From: a virus
Length of the DNA: 40,646 bases
IMG/VR virus record: IMGVR_UViG_3300001202_000005
Coordinates: 1 to 40,646 of that record
Reading direction: 5' to 3' (one strand)
Shown: piece after piece, positions 1,140-40,646 of the stretch
How positions within the stretch are numbered: position 1 is the stretch's first letter
How the letters are laid out: every line of letters starts with the position of its first letter
Made by a program: the position numbers and the translations under genes
The notes under the pieces: generated by a model
The model's database searches: none
What the model was told of the DNA's origin: nothing
Seen by the model: the letters and a program-made list of their open reading frames with translations, nothing else

Positions 1140-1170
1140 CTTTTCTCCTTTGTGATGATTTGTTAATAAA

Positions 1171-1179
1171 ATTATAACA
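1171..1179 (-). promoter_or_regulatory. extended -10 promoter element TGTTATAAT for the leftward early operon
   Basis: The minus strand reads TGTTATAAT (1179..1171), a perfect TGnTATAAT about 30 nt upstream of the SD of the 978..1139 gene. There is no good -35, which extended -10 promoters tolerate. Confidence 0.45.
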
Positions 1180-1262
1180 TAAATAAAAATATATTCTACA
1201 TTCAATACAACAAATGTATATAAACATAATAATATTAAATAGTTACAGTATATAATAATTAC

Positions 1263-1281
1263 ATTGGGCAAGATCGGGCAA
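1263..1281. repeat. tandem direct repeat ATTGGGCAA / ATCGGGCAA (10-bp period)
   Basis: Read directly at 1263-1271 and 1273-1281 in non-coding DNA. Confidence 0.7.
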
Positions 1282-1343
1282 CCATTAATAGTGCCATCAA
1301 TGCAAGGCAATCAATATCGTAGTAACTTATGATGCTGGATGAG

Positions 1344-1365
1344 CTCTAAGGGGTTCTAGTTAGAG
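1344..1365. repeat. inverted repeat CTCTAA-N10-TTAGAG
   Basis: Perfect 6-bp arms at 1344-1349 and 1360-1365. The loop carries the word GGGGTT that recurs at 1818-1823. Confidence 0.5.
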
Positions 1366-1380
1366 AGAGTATGGACATTC

Positions 1381-1401
1381 ACATATAATAGTACATATAA
1401 T
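1381..1401. repeat. tandem direct repeat ACATATAAT x2 (12-bp period)
   Basis: ACATATAAT at 1381-1389 and 1393-1401. Each copy contains a TATAAT hexamer. Confidence 0.7.
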
Positions 1402-1447
1402 GTGTTCCGCTACTTGCCTCGCGGTCGGTCACCTTCATTAGTACATT

Positions 1448-1803
1448 GATGCACGCCACAATACTAACACCCTAGTGAACCATTAAAGCACGCCAATATA
1501 ATATGTCCCAAATTCTCCACCACTTCGTCATAGTTACACCAATTATGGCACGCACATTTATACCCTATAATGATACTTATCGGTAATAACTTTAGTTGGC
1601 ACGATTGTAAGTAGCTGAAATTATATGCCCCCACCCTCTTTATAGGGGGGTACCTTCATCTGTGGAAAACAAAATAAAGTATACATGGTACGCACAATTT
1701 TTTCCTAATTTCGGAACACATCTAGTAATATCAACTACTTACGCACGTTTAACTCTTTTTTTATCGATAAAATAGAGTTGGGTTGGTCAATGTTGGTCAC
1801 GCC
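1448..1803. repeat. dispersed iteron-like motif family, core GCACGC(C)ACAAT
   Basis: Clear copies: GCACGCCACA 1451, GCACGCCAAT 1488, GCACGCACAT 1548, TACGCACAAT 1689. Degenerate copies: GCACGA 1599, ACGCACG 1741, GGTCACGCC 1795. All are in the same orientation with 37-91 bp spacing. Confidence 0.6.
1628..1650. repeat. G/C-rich hairpin CCCCC(A)CCCT-CTTTAT-AGGGGGG
   Basis: The C-run at 1628-1637 is complementary to the G-run at 1644-1650. It is a local GC island in AT-rich non-coding DNA. Confidence 0.45.
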
Positions 1804-1905
1804 TTCTCTAATATAAAGGGGTTAGAGGGAACCCGAACCTGATTTCAGGGGGTTGCGACCCTAGGAGCGGAACGAATCATTGGTCACGGATTGGTCTTGA
1901 CCAAT
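1783..1905. promoter_or_regulatory. TTGGTCA operator-like half-sites (direct pair plus palindrome)
   Basis: TTGGTCA at 1783-1789, 1793-1799 and 1880-1886. TTGGTCT at 1891-1897. Inverted TGACCAA at 1898-1904. ATTGGTCA/TGACCAAT forms a perfect 8-bp inverted repeat (1879-1886 / 1898-1905). Confidence 0.5.
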
Positions 1906-1926
1906 ATACCTTACTAGTAATACAAT
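1897..1926 (+). promoter_or_regulatory. sigma70-like promoter TTGACC-18 nt-TACAAT for the rightward block
   Basis: -35 TTGACC at 1897-1902 and -10 TACAAT at 1921-1926. The ATG of the first plus-strand ORF lies 7 nt downstream (1933) with no SD. Confidence 0.4.
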
Positions 1927-1932
1927 AGTACT

Positions 1933-2253
1933 ATGATACCAGTTAAAAAAGCAAAGATCGGATGTTTTACTTATGATATAATTCTTAGTAAAGCCAAACA
2001 AATGTCTAGCCACGGTGAAACGAATATAGATACCAAACAAATAATAGTGTATCCAAACGGAAACGAAGACGTAGTTAAAGAAACTCTCCAACACGAGATT
2101 TTGCACGCACTATTAGAAGATATAATACCTACCATAAAAGAGATAGAATCTGAAGATAAAATGGAGGAACAACTAATACGTTTACTTAGTCCAAGATTGA
2201 TGAGTTTCGTATTAGATAATCCAAAACTAGCTAAATACATATGGAATCTGTAG
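1933..2253 (+). CDS. small HExxH metallopeptidase-like protein (ImmA/IrrE- or SprT-like, 106 aa)
   Basis: Motif KETLQHEILHALLED (HExxH) is preceded by G-x-T...I-I-V, as in small Zn-peptidase domains. It is the first ORF of the plus-strand block. Confidence 0.45.
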   Translation: MIPVKKAKIGCFTYDIILSKAKQMSSHGETNIDTKQIIVYPNGNEDVVKETLQHEILHALLEDIIPTIKEIESEDKMEEQLIRLLSPRLMSFVLDNPKLAKYIWNL

Positions 2254-2471: not shown

Positions 2472-2631
2472 AGACATGTTAAAAGCACTCTGTATAGCAG
2501 CCAATAACTGCATTATGAAGGGTTCTTTTAGTGGAGATGACATCCATGAAGCATCTAGAATTATGGTGCAATGTAAGCTTATTTTGGAGCAATTAGAAGA
2601 TGAAAAAGAATATACCAGAACAGACACTTAA
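2458..2631 (+). CDS. possible small hypothetical protein (57 aa, below the track cutoff)
   Basis: The open frame MDDPRDMLKALCIAANNCIMKG... fills the 2471..2600 gap. It overlaps both neighbours and has no strong SD. Confidence 0.35.
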   Translation: MDDPRDMLKALCIAANNCIMKGSFSGDDIHEASRIMVQCKLILEQLEDEKEYTRTDT

Positions 2632-3121
2632 ACTAGCTAAAACTAGATATATGGGTCACGAGCCTTTGTCTAAAATATGTAAAGATTTAGAGGTTCCTAG
2701 ATCTTCATTACAATATTATGTCAACCTAGAGTGGAAGCATGAAAGGGAGCTAGCCGAAAATGAAGTAATTTCAGCTTTTGCAGATAGTCGTGTTTCAGTA
2801 CTAAATAAGATCTCTAAACATAGTGCGGATATTATACTAAAATCCTTAGAGTCACTAAGCAAGAGAGAAAAACCACCAACAGTTATTGAAGCTAGAGCAG
2901 CAGTTACTATATTTGAATCTTTAGATAAAATCATGAGATTAGATAAAGGTTCACCAACTGATATTATAGGTGAAACTAAACCAATGACAATAATAGAGCT
3001 AAAACAAGAGTTTGCTCAAATTGACCCATTCTACATAGAGGAAAAAAATGACAAAATTATTACAGACGACAGTACTAGTATTACTAATGATGGCGACAGC
3101 GTTGAGTCCAGAAATTCATGA
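2600..3121 (+). CDS. putative terminase small subunit / HTH DNA-binding protein
   Basis: N-terminal helix-turn-helix-like segment (PLSKICKDLEVPRSSLQYYV). Acidic C-terminus. Located upstream of terL. Confidence 0.45.
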   Translation: MKKNIPEQTLKLAKTRYMGHEPLSKICKDLEVPRSSLQYYVNLEWKHERELAENEVISAFADSRVSVLNKISKHSADIILKSLESLSKREKPPTVIEARAAVTIFESLDKIMRLDKGSPTDIIGETKPMTIIELKQEFAQIDPFYIEEKNDKIITDDSTSITNDGDSVESRNS

Positions 3122-3761
3122 TAGATATATCCACTCACATGACAATTCTGTAGTCAAATTAGTTAACCCAAAAGGTGGTTCTGGTTCAGGATTTGTAATT
3201 AAACTAAAAGGTAAAAAATTCATACTCACTAATAAGCACGTATGTATGATGAATAAAGGCGGAGATTTATCCGCACTAGATAACAAAGGTGGAGACACTA
3301 TTGTTAGGGTATTAGTAGCTTCTAGAAACTACGATCTCTGTCTAATGACTTCTAGACAAGATTTACCGGCTTTAAAACTAGCTAGGTCTTATGATTTATT
3401 TGACAATGCTTACGTTATAGGACACCCTTTAGGGCTCCCGATTACTATGACTAAAGGTAGATTAACTTCAAAAGAAATCATTCAATTACCTGTTAGTTGT
3501 AAAGAAAAATATGATAGAAAAATAAAAGTACCTCCTCTATATAGGATAATATTAGGCATATCAGAACTATGTATAAAAAACCATAATTCAGTTAGAATAC
3601 ATGCACCTATTTATCCTGGAAATTCAGGTTCTCCAGTATTAAATATATGGGGTAACGTATCAGGTGTTGTTTTTGCAGGGTCTACTAAGGCAGAGTTTGC
3701 TTCCTATATTATACCTTTAGAAGATGTTAGAAGATTTTTAAAGTCTATTAGAGTTAGATAA
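3048..3761 (+). CDS. secreted trypsin-like (S1/S1C-type) serine protease
   Basis: Catalytic triad contexts GSGFVI..ILTNKHV (His), YDLCLM (Asp) and GNSGSPVL (Ser). N-terminal signal-like segment MTKLLQTTVLVLLMMATALS. AGAGGA SD before ATG 3048. Confidence 0.85.
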   Translation: MTKLLQTTVLVLLMMATALSPEIHDRYIHSHDNSVVKLVNPKGGSGSGFVIKLKGKKFILTNKHVCMMNKGGDLSALDNKGGDTIVRVLVASRNYDLCLMTSRQDLPALKLARSYDLFDNAYVIGHPLGLPITMTKGRLTSKEIIQLPVSCKEKYDRKIKVPPLYRIILGISELCIKNHNSVRIHAPIYPGNSGSPVLNIWGNVSGVVFAGSTKAEFASYIIPLEDVRRFLKSIRVR

Positions 3762-4006
3762 TGTTATTTGGTTGGTTATCTACTATATGTTTTAGTTTAT
3801 GTGCTTTACCGCAGGCATATAGATGCTATAAGACAAAAGACGCTACCGGACTAAGCTCAATAATGTTGGCATTATGGTTTATAGGGGAAATTTGTGCTAT
3901 TATATACGTATTACCTTCTCAAAATATACCATTATTAACGAATTACGTCATTAATTTAATAATACTATCATATATAATAAAGGTAAAACTTGAAGACTTC
4001 AGCTAA
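3761..4006 (+). CDS. PQ-loop / SemiSWEET-like 3-TM membrane protein (81 aa)
   Basis: LCALPQAYRCYKTKDATGLS matches the PQ-loop signature (PQ..k..k....g.S). Three hydrophobic helices, and the length is typical of SemiSWEET. TAATG coupling to the protease gene. Confidence 0.6.
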   Translation: MLFGWLSTICFSLCALPQAYRCYKTKDATGLSSIMLALWFIGEICAIIYVLPSQNIPLLTNYVINLIILSYIIKVKLEDFS

Positions 4007-5486
4007 CACAGCCGCTAAACTAACACTACAAATAATGAAGGATCTCCATAAGTACTGGAAACCACATGAAGGTCAAATAGAGGCTTTAAAACCATTATAT
4101 GACACTAATACAGAATCTAACCTTATATTTACACAATGTGGACGTAAGTTTGGAAAGACAGATTTAGCAGTATATTGTCTATGGAGACATGCTCTATTGA
4201 ATCCGGGATCTATGTGCTATTATATAGGACCTCAACTAGATCACGCTAGAAAACTAATTTGGAATAATAGAAGATTACAGAAATTTGGCTGTGAAAGGGA
4301 TGAAAGAGGTAATATTGTACCTGGAGGAGAAGATGCTCTTAATAAATATATAGATAAAGTTAATGAATCTAAGTCAGTTATTAAATTTAAGAACGGATCT
4401 AGAATTGAAATTATTGGTTCCGAAAACTGGGGAGCAGCAAACGGATTAACGCCTGATTTTGTTGTCTATGATGAATTTAAAATGTTTAAAAGACAATGGC
4501 ATACTGAATTTAACCCAAACAGGATTGCCAAAGCTGCACCACTAGTAATTATTGGAACACCTCCTAAGCCGGGGGACTTAAATAAAGAAGAATATATAGC
4601 TATTGCTGAACAGGCTAAGCAAAGAGAAGATCAACATCATATTATTAGAGATTCTTTCTGTAACCCACATATAGATCCTAAAGAAACATTAAGAGAAATA
4701 GAAGCTCTTAAAGAAAGAGGAGATCACGATGTTATTGAAAGAGAGTATTTTGGTAAGTTAGTATATGGTGGAGCCGCATCTATTTTTCCTATGTTAAATA
4801 GAGATAGACACGTACATAAACACTCAGAAATGATGTACGAAATAAGAAGAGATTTAAAGAAAATGGATTGGTTTTGCATTACAGACCCAGGAACTACGAC
4901 TTGTTTTGCAGCATTAATAGGTTGTATTAATCCATATACTAAACAAATATATTTACTAGATGAGTTATATGAAACAGATCAATTAAACACTTCTACACGT
5001 AAAATGGTGCCCCAAATGCAGGCTAAAGCTAGAGCGGTGCATCCAAGGTCTGATTTTGAAGATGACTGGTATAAAGTATACGACGAAGCAGCCGCGTGGT
5101 TTGCCAATGAAACAATGGATCAATTCGGAATTTATTTCACGCCCACAGCTAAACACATGAATAAGAAGGAACACGGAATATCTCTAGTTAAAGACATATT
5201 AATACATGATTTAGTCAAAATATCAGATAGATGTATATATCTAATAAAAGAGATGCTAGAGTACGTTAAAGACGATAAAGGCAATATTCCTAAGAAAGAT
5301 GACCATTTAATTGACTGTTTTCGATACTTATTGGCTCACGATGGGTATAACATGGTAGAAGCAATAGAGGTTATTAAGCAGAAAGATTCAGGTAGAGGTC
5401 ATTCTAGGTCTCTAGATAACGATTGGAAGTGGAAAGAAGACCAGTTAGAGGACTGGACCAAAATAGCGGATCGTTTCTGGGAGTAA
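3990..5486 (+). CDS. terL: terminase large subunit
   Basis: Walker A-like QCGRKFGKTD and Walker B FVVYDE. C-terminal nuclease-type acidic motifs (CITDPG, DDHLIDCFRY). Followed by the portal gene. The start is uncertain (TTG 3990 or ATG 4035). Confidence 0.9.
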   Translation: MKTSANTAAKLTLQIMKDLHKYWKPHEGQIEALKPLYDTNTESNLIFTQCGRKFGKTDLAVYCLWRHALLNPGSMCYYIGPQLDHARKLIWNNRRLQKFGCERDERGNIVPGGEDALNKYIDKVNESKSVIKFKNGSRIEIIGSENWGAANGLTPDFVVYDEFKMFKRQWHTEFNPNRIAKAAPLVIIGTPPKPGDLNKEEYIAIAEQAKQREDQHHIIRDSFCNPHIDPKETLREIEALKERGDHDVIEREYFGKLVYGGAASIFPMLNRDRHVHKHSEMMYEIRRDLKKMDWFCITDPGTTTCFAALIGCINPYTKQIYLLDELYETDQLNTSTRKMVPQMQAKARAVHPRSDFEDDWYKVYDEAAAWFANETMDQFGIYFTPTAKHMNKKEHGISLVKDILIHDLVKISDRCIYLIKEMLEYVKDDKGNIPKKDDHLIDCFRYLLAHDGYNMVEAIEVIKQKDSGRGHSRSLDNDWKWKEDQLEDWTKIADRFWE

Positions 5487-30341: not shown

Positions 30342-30493
30342 TTAATTTTAACCATAAATGAATAAGAAAATAAAGCTAAGGCAAGTACTTGATACATAAC
30401 CCTAGCTTCTATATCGTGTTCGGAAAAGGAGTAACCTAAACACAAATATCCTAATATTGTAAAAATTGTTTGTTCAATTAATCTATTTTTCAT
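30338..30493 (-). CDS. small 2-TM membrane protein (51 aa, below the track cutoff)
   Basis: Translation: MKNRLIEQTIFTILGYLCLGYSFSEHDIEARVMYQVLALALFSYSFMVKIK. It fills the 30341..30483 gap, with overlaps at both ends. Confidence 0.55.
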   Translation of the reverse strand: MKNRLIEQTIFTILGYLCLGYSFSEHDIEARVMYQVLALALFSYSFMVKIK

Positions 30494-38552: not shown

Positions 38553-38677
38553 TACTTTCCTCCGTTTTTGACGTAATACTTAATAAATTCTTTTTTTGCT
38601 TTTTTGTAATTTTCTTTAGTAAATGTGTCTTTAATTGCTGTTCTTTTAAATGCTATGTAAGCTTCTAAATATATCAT
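38552..38677 (-). CDS. hypothetical basic protein (41 aa, below the track cutoff)
   Basis: GGAGGATTATAATG start at 38677. Translation: MIYLEAYIAFKRTAIKDTFTKENYKKAKKEFIKYYVKNGGK. TAATG-coupled at both ends. Confidence 0.55.
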   Translation of the reverse strand: MIYLEAYIAFKRTAIKDTFTKENYKKAKKEFIKYYVKNGGK

Positions 38678-39150
38678 TATAATCCTCCTACGAAATTATT
38701 TAATTCAGTATAATAGAATTCTCTGTCTTTGTCAAGACATTTCTCAACTTGTAATTCAGACCACAGGTGAGGTCGCATTATAGAGGCAGGGCACAATACA
38801 TCCTTATCTGCATTTTGATGAAGTTCCCTGTCTTCGTTATGCCTTACATCATAAAAACAATGAACCATTTCGTGCATTATTAAAATTTCTTTTTGTCCTG
38901 CCCCTAAAATATCCCACTTTTTATCATTAATAACAATTAAATTCTTTTTAACATTACATGTTCCTAGTACTTTATCTGGTAATTCACCGAAAATAACGTC
39001 TCCTTTAAAACTTATATCTAATTCATTTTCTACAAATTCTACATAAGATAGTAATTCTGAGTCAATAATTTGGCTTCCTCTGAAAATCGTGTTACACGAA
39101 AATAATAATGATATTGTTAGTAAAGGTAATAATTTCAATAGGTTATACAT
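38677..39150 (-). CDS. predicted lipoprotein with HExxH Zn-metallopeptidase motif (157 aa from ATG 39150)
   Basis: AAAGGAGAAAATATG start. Signal peptide with a lipobox-like LLFSC. Motif ILIMHEMVHCFYDVRH. First gene after the leftward promoter. Confidence 0.65.
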   Translation of the reverse strand: MYNLLKLLPLLTISLLFSCNTIFRGSQIIDSELLSYVEFVENELDISFKGDVIFGELPDKVLGTCNVKKNLIVINDKKWDILGAGQKEILIMHEMVHCFYDVRHNEDRELHQNADKDVLCPASIMRPHLWSELQVEKCLDKDREFYYTELNNFVGGL

Positions 39151-39172
39151 ATTTTCTCCTTTTGTATAGTTA

Positions 39173-39201
39173 ATATTATCATCTTTTTTAATAAAAATCA
39201 A
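39173..39201 (-). promoter_or_regulatory. leftward promoter TTGATT-17 nt-TAATAT with TG extension
   Basis: The minus strand reads TTGATT (39201..39196), then a 17-nt spacer ending in TGA, then TAATAT (39178..39173). It lies about 25 nt upstream of the lipoprotein start. Confidence 0.45.
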
Positions 39202-39205
39202 GTGC

Positions 39206-39238
39206 TTTTACATGTTTTTTGGATTTTTACACGTTTTT
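39206..39238. repeat. tandem repeat TTTTACATGTTTTT / TTTTACACGTTTTT
   Basis: Copies at 39206-39220 and 39224-39238, each with a near-palindromic ACAYGT core. They abut the -35 of the leftward promoter. Confidence 0.6.
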
Positions 39239-39332
39239 ATTTTGGGCGGCAATACCTACAAATTCTCTACACTAAAAAACTAAACTAACTAGTTAATATT
39301 ACTAGGATATATAACATTTCTTAAAATAGTTC

Positions 39333-39360
39333 TTGACATATACTGTATATATGATATACT
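39333..39360 (+). promoter_or_regulatory. near-consensus sigma70 promoter TTGACA-16 nt-TATACT with TGn extension
   Basis: TTGACA at 39333-39338, TG at 39352-39353 and TATACT at 39355-39360. About 125 nt upstream of the RusA-like ORF. Confidence 0.6.
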
Positions 39361-39485
39361 CTATATCAGTAGCTACTTACGTAGCACTTCAGTTGTTCCT
39401 TATTTAGTTATTTTTATTTAGGGTTCCATCAATAGTACCATATATACGTAACCGTGTAATTTTTTTTTGACCAGGGAACCAAAAA

Positions 39486-40058
39486 ATGTTAGATCTTCTT
39501 TTAAAATTTAAATCCAGACCATTTTCCATTAATAAAGCCAATTATAGAAACGGCTCTCGAACTAGAGAGAATAGGGCATGGGCGGACTCCATACATACCC
39601 AAATGACGGAACCCGAAATTATGGATCAGATTATTAAGTTTAAAAAGAATATACCAAAATATCCTTTATTCCATGTAACAATATTTCATTTGCATCCTAG
39701 TTTTAAATTTTATACTGCTAGTCAAGACGTTCATTTACAAACTATGGATTTAACTAATATTGAGAAAGGCTTAGTTGATTTAATATTCGATAAGAGATAT
39801 TGTGGTCGGTTCACAAAATCGGGCGACCGAATTGAAACCCTGGAAAATAATGACAAGCGTATAATTGGTTTAGAGTCTTATAAAGGAATTAGTGAAAATC
39901 AGGAAAACGAGATAGTAGTTTATATTCAGTTGGTCCCAGATCTATCTCTAGTTCGGGACCGCCTAAATTCTGTCCATATGAAGCGAGATTACAATTCTAA
40001 TCTACTTTCTCCTCTCGGGTCACCTCAAGGGTCAGACCATGAACCGAAGCCCGAATAG
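39486..40058 (+). CDS. rusA: RusA-like Holliday junction resolvase
   Basis: [23 protein letters not shown] aligns by eye to E. coli RusA [39 protein letters not shown] aligns to [26 protein letters not shown] aligns to LDDAQVVDYRVVK. Confidence 0.65.
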   Translation: [190 protein letters not shown]

Positions 40059-40549: not shown

Positions 40550-40646
40550 TATATTCCTCCAATACTGAAATAAGTTCCAGTCCTAATAATACTACATCAT
40601 TTCCATAGTCATTGCAAGCTCTAGTAAGCTTAATTTCAGTGAATAA
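40524..40646 (-). CDS. 3' part of the gene split across the contig ends (see 1..94)
   Basis: In frame with 94..1 through the 49-bp repeat. TAG at 40526..40524. Confidence 0.6.
   Translation of the reverse strand, partial: LFTEIKLTRACNDYGNDVVLLGLELISVLEEYNEVFNFND
40598..40646. repeat. 49-bp direct terminal repeat, right copy (identical to 1..49)
   Basis: Exact match read by eye. Confidence 0.95.

Follow-up and report, generated by a model that had tools for sequence, protein, structure and literature searches.

The genome of an uncultured phage (IMG/VR virus record IMGVR_UViG_3300001202_000005), in which genes otherwise abut or overlap, contains a stretch of 790 bp without genes at positions 1140–1932, which raises the question of what this gap does. 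The DNA analyzed here, referred to as the window, is the whole stretch of 40,646 nt. Its first and last 49 nt overlap exactly (1–49 versus 40598–40646), which indicates that the window is a circularly closed assembly of a phage genome of ~40.6 kb; the assembly junction falls within a leftward early gene, outside the gap. A preliminary description had proposed a replication origin with iterons next to an AT-rich block, and had named a multi-operator switch and structured RNAs as alternatives. Comparison with related loci demonstrates that the gene-free stretch is real, conserved and non-coding. It is very probably a hub at which proteins bind the DNA itself, neither a gene nor a structured RNA. 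The right end appears, with good probability, to be a regulated promoter of the packaging and structural operon carrying operator units, and a packaging or terminus role of the central core is a more tentative proposal, held at somewhat less than even probability.

The gap is bounded by two divergent genes. The leftward gene starts at 1139 (ATG 1139–1137, Shine-Dalgarno (SD) sequence AAAGGAGAAAAG) and the rightward gene at 1933, and only short open reading frames (ORFs) without an SD lie between them, as had been described. The nearest isolate phages share only ~22% identity in TerL and portal (tblastn), so that no annotated relative could be used, and a blastn search of positions 1000–2100 against 50,697 phage records gave no DNA match. 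Relatives were collected by protein searches with the HExxH protein encoded at 1933–2253 (+), the first gene of the rightward operon, and with its neighbouring proteins, followed by contig look-ups. Ten independent loci span the region (the window, L021, L013, L022, L024, L018, L002, L015, L031 and L026), and several more cover it partially. In all full-length loci, the HExxH gene is directly preceded by a gene-free stretch of 458–1226 nt, and the genes downstream of the gap always include those of the HExxH protein, the TerS-like protein, the Trypsin_2 protease and TerL. The left flank is mosaic: the window and L013 have small early genes there, L018 has DUF932/GP88, and L015 has same-strand genes. 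No conserved protein-coding gene was detected in the homologous gaps by tblastx, which gave similar scores in all six frames; this indicates conservation at the nucleotide level and rules out a hidden gene. Conservation is confined to short words, and the sequence between them cannot be aligned. When viral contigs were scanned for a pattern of the two principal elements described below, the 16-nt word and the C/G element, there was no match.

The repeats of the gap are denser than in shuffled sequence. GCACGC occurs three times versus a shuffle mean of 0.05 (reached by none of 2000 shuffles), and TTGGTCA three times versus 0.06, these being all the plus-strand copies of TTGGTCA in the genome. 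The shorter GCACG is present in five copies, all on one strand, versus 0.21 expected from the genome rate, and TATAAT words are likewise enriched. The two most conserved features, a 16-nt word (1608–1623, minus strand; 1726–1741, plus strand) and a promoter abutting the ATG at 1933, had been overlooked in the preliminary description.

The promoter of the rightward packaging and structural operon is predicted at 1897–1935 (+), where TTGACC and TACAAT are separated by 18 nt (1897–1926) and followed, after 6 nt, by the ATG at 1933. The -10 hexamer ends 6–7 nt before the ATG in nine phages (the window, L021, L013, L022, L023, L024, L001, L002 and L031), and this short distance, together with the lack of an SD, predicts a leaderless mRNA; L018 and L014 differ in having a 25-nt leader with an SD. 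The features expected of a sigma-70 promoter are present, with -35 and -10 hexamers, a spacing within the usual 16–18 nt, and an ATG at the predicted transcript start. A putative promoter-proximal operator at 1880–1904 (+) consists of an 11-nt tandem repeat (ATTGGTCACGG / ATTGGTCTTGA) and an inverted repeat, TTGGTC-TT-GACCAA, which overlaps the -35; the second tandem unit of the window doubles as part of the inverted repeat. A distal pair of TTGGTCA at 1783–1799 (+), with 10-nt spacing, lies ~100 nt upstream of the proximal cluster. All the half-sites reported earlier were recovered (TTGGTCA at 1783, 1793 and 1880, TTGGTCT at 1891, and the inverted TGACCAA at 1898–1904).

The arrangement of tandem units abutting the -35 is kept among the phages and the unit sequence differs in each. 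The 11-nt units are AATCCGCCACT / AATCCGCCTTGA in L013, CTACCTGACGG / CTACTTGACTTG in L021, CACCTTACTTT / CACTTTACTTG in L022 and AATTCGTCACA / AATTCGTCATTG in L024, and L031 carries AGTTTCC twice; across the phages, the unit sequences include ATCCGCC, CTACYTGAC, CACTTTAC, TTCGTCA and AGTTTCC. The distal pair has equivalents in L001 (TTGGTCA / TTCGTCA), L013 (CCGTCAC twice), L021 and L023. A kept arrangement with a drifting unit sequence is characteristic of co-evolution between a phage-specific DNA-binding protein and its sites. When four downstream proteins were compared by discordant similarity, none of them tracked the unit sequence. A palindrome at 1752–1777 (CTCT-TTTTTTATCGATAAAA-T-AGAG) is specific to the window; in the alignment with L013 and L021 it appears as an insertion, and it is therefore probably not a core part.

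The 16-nt word, TAATATCAAsTACTTA (TAATATCAA[C/G]TACTTA), is common to gaps that cannot otherwise be aligned. An exact copy in the window, TAATATCAACTACTTA, lies at 1726–1741 (+) and includes TATCAACTACTTA, a match to the IHF consensus WATCAANNNNTTR as quoted in PMC10380432. An inverted copy, TAATTTCAGCTACTTA, at 1608–1623 (−) lies 4 nt from the C/G element, and the position of this minus-strand word is kept in L013, L021 and L024. A degenerate copy, TGATTTCAGGGGGTTG, at 1840–1855 (+) separates the two TTGGTC clusters; word-like copies align with it in L013 (3836–3853), L021, L024, L001 (152–169) and L023 (216). Allowing two mismatches or fewer, three copies are found in the window (1726–1741, 1608–1623 and 39286–39301) versus 0.34 expected; across the loci, 12 matches in 8.7 kb of gaps versus 3 in 93 kb outside correspond to a ~40-fold enrichment, and the strict IHF consensus is enriched 13-fold in the gaps. 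At 1726–1741 the consensus match is accompanied by the A/T-rich 5´ flank of an IHF site, and word positions 12–13 (AC) are conserved as well, beyond what the IHF consensus requires. A site for a host protein would explain why the word alone survives between diverged phages. On this basis, we give the word copies about an even chance of being IHF-type sites.

Two further matches lie outside such gaps: TATCAAGTACTTG at 30382–30394 (−), which matches the strict IHF consensus and has the same sequence as the core of the word variant in relatives, stands inside the early coding region, and a one-mismatch word at 2046–2061 (−) of L003, a distant relative, stands in a small ORF in the TerL–portal interval, away from any large gap. 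Two other explanations of the word were rejected. The word resembles a T7 promoter, but a role as a promoter for a phage RNA polymerase was set aside in favour of an IHF-type site, because the scanned proteins included no RNA polymerase and the words of L018 and L002 are co-directional; an invertible segment between inverted words was discarded because the contig starts fall outside the repeats and the relatives have direct copies.

At 1628–1650 lies a two-fold-symmetric element, CCCCC-N12-GGGGGG, the C-run/G-run noted earlier, which is a candidate cosN-like site of terminase cleavage or recognition, or else a cis-site of replication. The element (C5–7/N10–15/G4–6) occurs exactly once in nine of the ten full gaps, 215–400 nt upstream of the ATG, and is 22–24 nt long throughout with a variable centre. 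It appears in at most 1.1% of the shuffles of any gap and has no match in 127 kb of flanking sequence. Since neither strand carries a consistent U-run, the element is not an intrinsic terminator. A block of ~150 nt around it is common to the window, L021, L013 and L022; the conserved non-coding sequence at 1655–1725 (AAGGTATAyATGGTnCnCACAAtTTTTTnCCTAnTTT...TCTAAT) lies between the two words and holds the fourth GCACGC copy (1689), whose CGC is not kept in the relatives. L026 (reverse strand), a more distant relative, has a gap of ~1.2 kb with 15 direct-repeat families, including 48-nt tandems present three times, ten C5–6 runs on one strand, four word copies, a 99-nt scaffold N-run and no C...G element.

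Folding was assessed on both strands. The minus-strand fold of 1596–1750 is more stable than shuffled sequence (z = -3.5; reached by 0/200 shuffles) and is driven by a 17-nt inverted repeat (1607–1623 / 1726–1742); the plus-strand fold of 1400–1932 gives z = -2.1, and for the leftward 541-nt leader the predicted fold is no more stable than in shuffled sequence (z = +0.6). Rfam, at both E-value and gathering thresholds, and ARAGORN gave no match in the window, and Rfam gave none in nine relatives. The best sub-threshold Rfam match is CRISPR-DR8 at 1822–1859 (−), with 20 bits versus a cut-off of 39 and E = 0.22. This match covers the GGGTT...AACCC and CCTGA..TCAGG hairpins and, as a single copy with no array, was judged to be due to chance. 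No compensatory change was found in 22 pairs, and shuffles do as well, in a comparison of only four sequences with low power. In the alifold consensus, nothing remains but the invariant 5-bp C/G stem, and the covariation term is 0. Pairing breaks where the word arms vary and none of the breaks is compensated, which indicates two protein sites instead of a stem; a long-range stem between the two words was rejected on the same grounds.

For the core as part of the whole hub, we tentatively favour, at a probability somewhat short of even, a lambda-cos-like packaging or terminus site fused to the regulated late promoter. This layout, with a symmetric G/C site, IHF-like sites, repeats, and packaging genes downstream, is absent from the preliminary description. 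Terminase would recognize concatemers and cut them at the C5-N12-G6 site (1628–1650), in a packaging start of cos or pac type that has lineage-specific iterons on the left and unit clusters on the right and is laid out like lambda cosN / cosB(R3-I1-R2). Three copies of the IHF-consensus word would bend the DNA, one between the unit clusters and two flanking the core. The comparison of loci gives firmer support to control of the late promoter through the tandem and inverted 11-nt units on its -35, together with the distal pair ~100 nt upstream; a DNA-binding protein particular to each phage, its specificity shifting from lineage to lineage, would recognize these units. On the packaging reading, virion DNA would end at the core and packaging would proceed into the late-gene side, making the early operon and the AT-rich promoters (1140–1281) the last DNA to be packaged and the first to be injected. 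The origin may lie in the hub as well or at 39201–39486.

The packaging core is favoured because a symmetric G/C site, lineage-specific repeats and IHF-type sites ahead of the terminase operon reproduce the cosN/cosB layout of lambda, in which the symmetric cosN is followed by R3, the IHF site I1 and R2, and the R sites co-vary with the TerS recognition helix (PMC4669245). As in lambda, the two-fold symmetric G/C-rich site is followed within 100–250 nt by repeats split by an IHF-type site (here the unit clusters at 1783–1799 and 1880–1904 with the word-like copy at 1840–1855 between them, TerS binding being putative); the site lies directly upstream of the terminase-encoding operon; the repeats differ between related phages and the central site is shared (C/G element in 9/10 gaps); and the central site is 215–400 nt from the first gene here and ~190 nt in lambda. 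Ends at this place would also put the early operon on the end that is packaged last and injected first. G/C-rich cos sites are, in addition, conspicuous in low-GC phages. In contrast to lambda, there is no sequence similarity, the G/C element being unrelated to GGGCGGCGACCT; the centre of the site varies, whereas the cohesive-end sequence of lambda is conserved; the first gene encodes the HExxH protein, with TerS 0.7 kb further on; a promoter with operators lies on the repeats and an extra iteron family is found on the opposite side of the site; and cohesive ends are here a prediction.

Features of pac sites are also present. The pac sites of P1 and SPP1 have repeats on both sides of the cleavage region, and P1 also needs IHF/HU; a pac site is usually found within the TerS gene or next to it, and genomes packaged by the headful mechanism have permuted ends. 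The gaps resemble them in having one repeat family on both sides of the centre (CGGTGTG in L021) and an IHF-like site beside the centre, and differ from P1 in that the gap has no Dam (GATC) hexamers.

The ends of assembled contigs cluster at the element. Contigs of 39.9, 40.8 and 42.0 kb and a short contig begin within ~70 nt of it, which is far from random for 40-kb genomes; relative to the element, the ends lie at +17 (L023), ~+67 (L001), ~+70 (L014), -47 (L017) and +35 (L025), and the contigs of L001, L014 and L023 start at positions homologous to the 1655–1725 block. The far end of the L001 contig was not retrieved with prim-pol, PolA and helicase queries, nor that of L014 with a DUF932 query. 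Samples of the same studies also show strain-level hypervariability or segment replacement beside the element (L017 1–104 versus L025 4212–4315), which coincides with contig ends.

A number of observations weigh against a packaging site with fixed ends. The break positions are spread over ~100 nt and not confined to one nucleotide, and the assemblies of the window and of L012/L013 run across the element without a break. Between its two ends, the 42-kb scaffold has a 104-nt overlap with the element at its centre, at an identity of only 93%; L027 stops where it diverges from L026 (L027 1–45), and L031 and L032 differ over ~30 nt directly left of the C/G element. Because of these three cases, the breaks are equally explicable by strain-level hypervariability or mosaic junctions, and the putative physical ends rest on contig sequence. 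The word recurs in the other intergenic region (39286–39301), as would be expected of a general architectural or transcriptional role more than of one in packaging only, and the IHF match was scored against a published consensus. Among the window, L001, L023 and L013, a helix of the TerS-like protein reads QYYVNxEW where the units are TTGGTC and QYHVNTTW where they are CCGYCAC; this match breaks in L015, which has QYYVNKEW like L001 and L023 and yet carries the units AAGTTTCC. The 23-nt tandem iterons of L002 and the AT-richest block resemble a plasmid-type origin more closely. The contig breaks mark a special spot, either DNA ends or a hotspot of strain-level variation and mosaicism, and do not prove termini.

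A serious rival, which we hold to be rather unlikely, is an origin of the iteron type, in which an initiator (for example, the DUF3987 helicase or prim-pol) binds the iterons, IHF bends the DNA, 1158–1257 or the core melts, with transcription from promoters on either side as a possible activator or primer of initiation. The GCACG(C) family of the window extends over 1451–1610 (+), with copies at 1451, 1488, 1548 and 1599 in a C-rich, G-poor tract (1401–1600, GC skew -0.28 to -0.48). The copies reported at 1451 (GCACGCCACAAT), 1488 (GCACGCCAATAT), 1548 (GCACGCACATTT) and 1689 (TACGCACAATTT) were found, as were the weaker ones at 1599, 1741 and 1795; the description of these copies as phased did not hold, as their spacings are irregular (37, 60, 51 and 90 nt). 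Each phage has its own repeat family in one orientation within ~250 nt left of the C/G element (~430 nt in L031): GCACGC in the window, CGGTGTG in L021 (five copies and one right of the element; -220 to -36 and +128), ATAGCGT in L002 (four copies at 23 nt), CATGCC/TGCAAG in L018, CACGTCT and TGCCAA in L024, and GCGGTCA in L031. The iterons are often 22–27 nt apart, as in L002 (23), L021 (22 and 24), L018 (25) and L022, versus 37, 60 and 51 nt in the window; the spacing typical of iteron origins is ~22 bp.

Such one-orientation, lineage-specific iterons (the 23-nt repeat of L002 in four copies), the AT-rich block, the IHF-type sites and the inverted unit over the promoter are shared with the iteron origins of pSC101, R6K gamma and lambda ori. 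The segment 1158–1257, part of the block previously noted as AT-rich, has 12% GC, is the AT-richest 100 nt of the genome and could serve as an unwinding region. The inverted unit repeat on the downstream promoter resembles the Rep autoregulation of the iteron plasmids pSC101 and pPS10, the origin of lactococcal phage c2 lies in a divergent early/late intergenic region, and the phage encodes prim-pol, helicase and PolA. Against an origin, the irregular window iterons stand 200–300 nt from the AT-rich block, and no initiator gene adjoins the gap; the adjoining genes encode small proteins of no assigned function, and prim-pol and helicase are 3–5 kb away beside a second iteron region. A universal symmetric G/C site at a conserved distance from the first gene of the packaging operon is also unusual for origins. 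DnaA boxes were sought by eye in GCACGC and the conserved block, with at best 7/9 matches. GC skew follows gene orientation and is therefore uninformative.

The second region, at 39201–39486 (300–790 in L013), lies directly upstream of the leftward prim-pol/helicase operon and is at least an equal candidate for the origin. It contains TTTTACAYGTTTTT twice and one inverted copy, a conserved repeat amplified in L013 to 5–6 copies of TTTTTACACGKT, a word-like copy at 39286–39301, and a near-consensus rightward promoter (TTGACA-17-TATACT) at ~39333–39361; we regard the region as a candidate for an alternative origin or early operator. The same-orientation, lineage-specific iterons and the AT-richest block fit the origin reading of the preliminary description, which is weakened by this second iteron region and by the cos/pac-like layout. 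Packaging and origin functions could share the hub.

A purely transcriptional switch, in which the gap consists of promoters, operators and bending sites that set the timing of the leftward early and rightward late operons and has no role in replication or packaging, is unlikely. It would follow the model of Mu Pe/Pc-IHF or of lambda CII-type direct-repeat activation, with the C/G element as a transcript hairpin or a regulator site. The conserved promoter, whose tandem units occupy -37 to -58 and whose -35 carries an inverted repeat, argues for it, as do the near-consensus promoters in both directions, the enriched TATAAT words, and the three good words of the window, each upstream of, and pointing towards, one of three operons. 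Sites of lambda CII-type activators are direct repeats that straddle the -35 (TTGC-N6-TTGC), and the units here are similar in forming a tandem direct repeat with a 10–11-nt period next to or over the -35 of a phage promoter; they differ in an unrelated unit sequence, an extra inverted copy and the distal pair ~100 nt upstream. However, 460–1200 nt with 3–5 iterons is oversized for a switch, the scanned phage proteins included neither a repressor nor an integrase-type protein, and the C/G element has no U-run on either strand in most phages and no covariation. The words of L018 and L002 both point one way and are thus unpaired with leftward genes, and the clustering of contig breaks is left unexplained. 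The operator switch proposed earlier is supported for the right-hand 150 nt, where the conserved promoter, the TTGGTC units on the -35 and their phage-specific sequence are found.

We consider it improbable that the gap is a combined origin and packaging module, in which the C5-N12-G5 site and the IHF-type words would mark a lineage-wide terminus, packaging start and replication start. The adjacent segment would, with the same low probability, be a diversifying specificity determinant whose iterons and units swap between co-occurring strains, a recognition code that changes rapidly enough to break metagenome assemblies.

A short direct terminal repeat of the T7 type, comprising a core of ~100–140 bp from the minus-strand word to the plus-strand word and flanked by repeat arrays and promoters, is very unlikely. 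The T7 genome end is gene-free over 925 nt, with CCCCCATAGGGGGTACC at 25–41 of the terminal repeat followed by CCTAAAG arrays and promoters. The gap resembles this end and the concatemer junction in its ~1 kb without genes, its short-repeat families, its host-type promoters in both directions and its C5...G5 palindrome; the window has ATAGGGGGGTACC, a T7-like internal virion protein match and PolA are present in the phage, and the 104-nt overlap of the 42-kb scaffold ends around the element also speaks for a terminal repeat. In contrast to T7, the flanking genes diverge, neither a phage RNA polymerase gene nor T7-type promoters were found, and no exact terminal repeat was seen. The overlap at the ends of the 42-kb scaffold falls short of the identity of true terminal repeats, and the L001 contig holds its first 25 nt a single time, with no copy at the other end. 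A terminal repeat would give an unbranched cycle in the assembly graph, so contigs should not break at one place, and the resemblance to T7 is a 12-nt match that may be due to chance.

Structured RNAs transcribed from the 1372–1401 promoter or the core, with the 17-nt inverted repeat closing a multi-branched fold, are the least probable reading: the folds of 1596–1750 and 1400–1932 and a strong rightward promoter 530 nt upstream of the next gene speak for them, but the Rfam, covariation and leader results given above do not, the word arms diverge independently towards a common word, as protein sites do, and short words are conserved amid unalignable sequence.

The left part of the gap contains an AT-rich block at 1140–1281 (12–21% GC), with three overlapping leftward sigma-70-like promoter candidates whose -10 hexamers end at 1252, 1193 and 1171. 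This block is likely the early-promoter/UP region serving the leftward operon from 1139, and may possibly act as a DNA-unwinding element. The tandem ATYGGGCAA pair at 1263–1281 (ATTGGGCAA / ATCGGGCAA, plus strand, 10-nt period) is present as described, in only two copies, and its word GGGCAAGATC recurs in L013 elsewhere in the layout. Two overlapping near-consensus promoters are predicted at 1361–1401 (+), TAGAGA-17-TATAAT and TGGACA-18-TATAAT, and the previously noted tandem of ACATATAAT at 1381–1401 provides both -10 boxes. L013 has a counterpart (TAGACC-17-TATAAT), and the site is not kept in L021. The transcript would be non-coding and C-rich. Downstream of the 1372–1401 promoter, the C-rich, G-poor tract at 1401–1600 has 30–31 C versus 11–17 G per 100 nt; its rightward RNA would resemble a Rho-loading (rut-like) tract, and its leftward RNA would be G-rich and R-loop-prone. 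A leftward promoter in the core (TTAGGA ... TATACT) was rejected, as it has a 19-nt spacer and scores under the scan threshold. The small hairpins at 1344–1365 (CTCTAA-N10-TTAGAG) and 1819–1834 (GGGTTAGAGGGAACCC) were reproduced. The word AAGGGGTT..AGAGRG does occur near both edges; it is a two-copy 8–10-mer that is not kept in the relatives.

The rightward genes extend from 1933 to ~27.3 kb, in the order of the HExxH protein, two small proteins, the TerS-like protein, the Trypsin_2 protease, TerL, portal, scaffold, major head and internal virion proteins. The TerS-like helix-turn-helix (HTH) protein (173 amino acids; 2600–3121, plus strand) belongs to a family with an HTH-like N-terminus, of which 2/8 members match Terminase_5 (E = 8e-6), and TerL (3990–5486, plus strand) is assigned by PHROG matches. 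The leftward genes encode endolysin, PolA, SSB, dNMP kinase, a PD-(D/E)XK nuclease, the DUF3987 helicase, prim-pol and many small proteins. The gene of the Trypsin_2 serine protease (3048–3761) overlaps the end of the TerS-like gene, and a small PQ-loop membrane protein (3761–4006) is encoded between the protease and TerL; both are unusual content for a packaging module and are kept in the relatives. Small HExxH proteins head two operons, at 1933–2253 (+) and 38677–39201 (−), and both match phrog_1233; the latter also weakly matches Pfam PhageMetallopep. Both genes lie downstream of a copy of the conserved word and are paralogous first genes.

As a type of phage region the gap is familiar, gene-free cos, origin and promoter hubs being standard in phages, and its form has not been described before. 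The lineage is uncultured and its isolate relatives share at most ~22% protein identity, and the hub is the only place where its packaging start, late control and possibly its origin can be read from sequence. The C/G element and the IHF-like word form a compact signature by which genomes of the group can be found and oriented; the signature permits the prediction of genome ends and hints at a host that has IHF. The combined origin and packaging module, if true, would be a previously undescribed lineage-wide cis element of an uncultured freshwater podovirus-like group. The kept architecture with lineage-specific repeats provides a clean natural example of co-evolving protein–DNA specificity.

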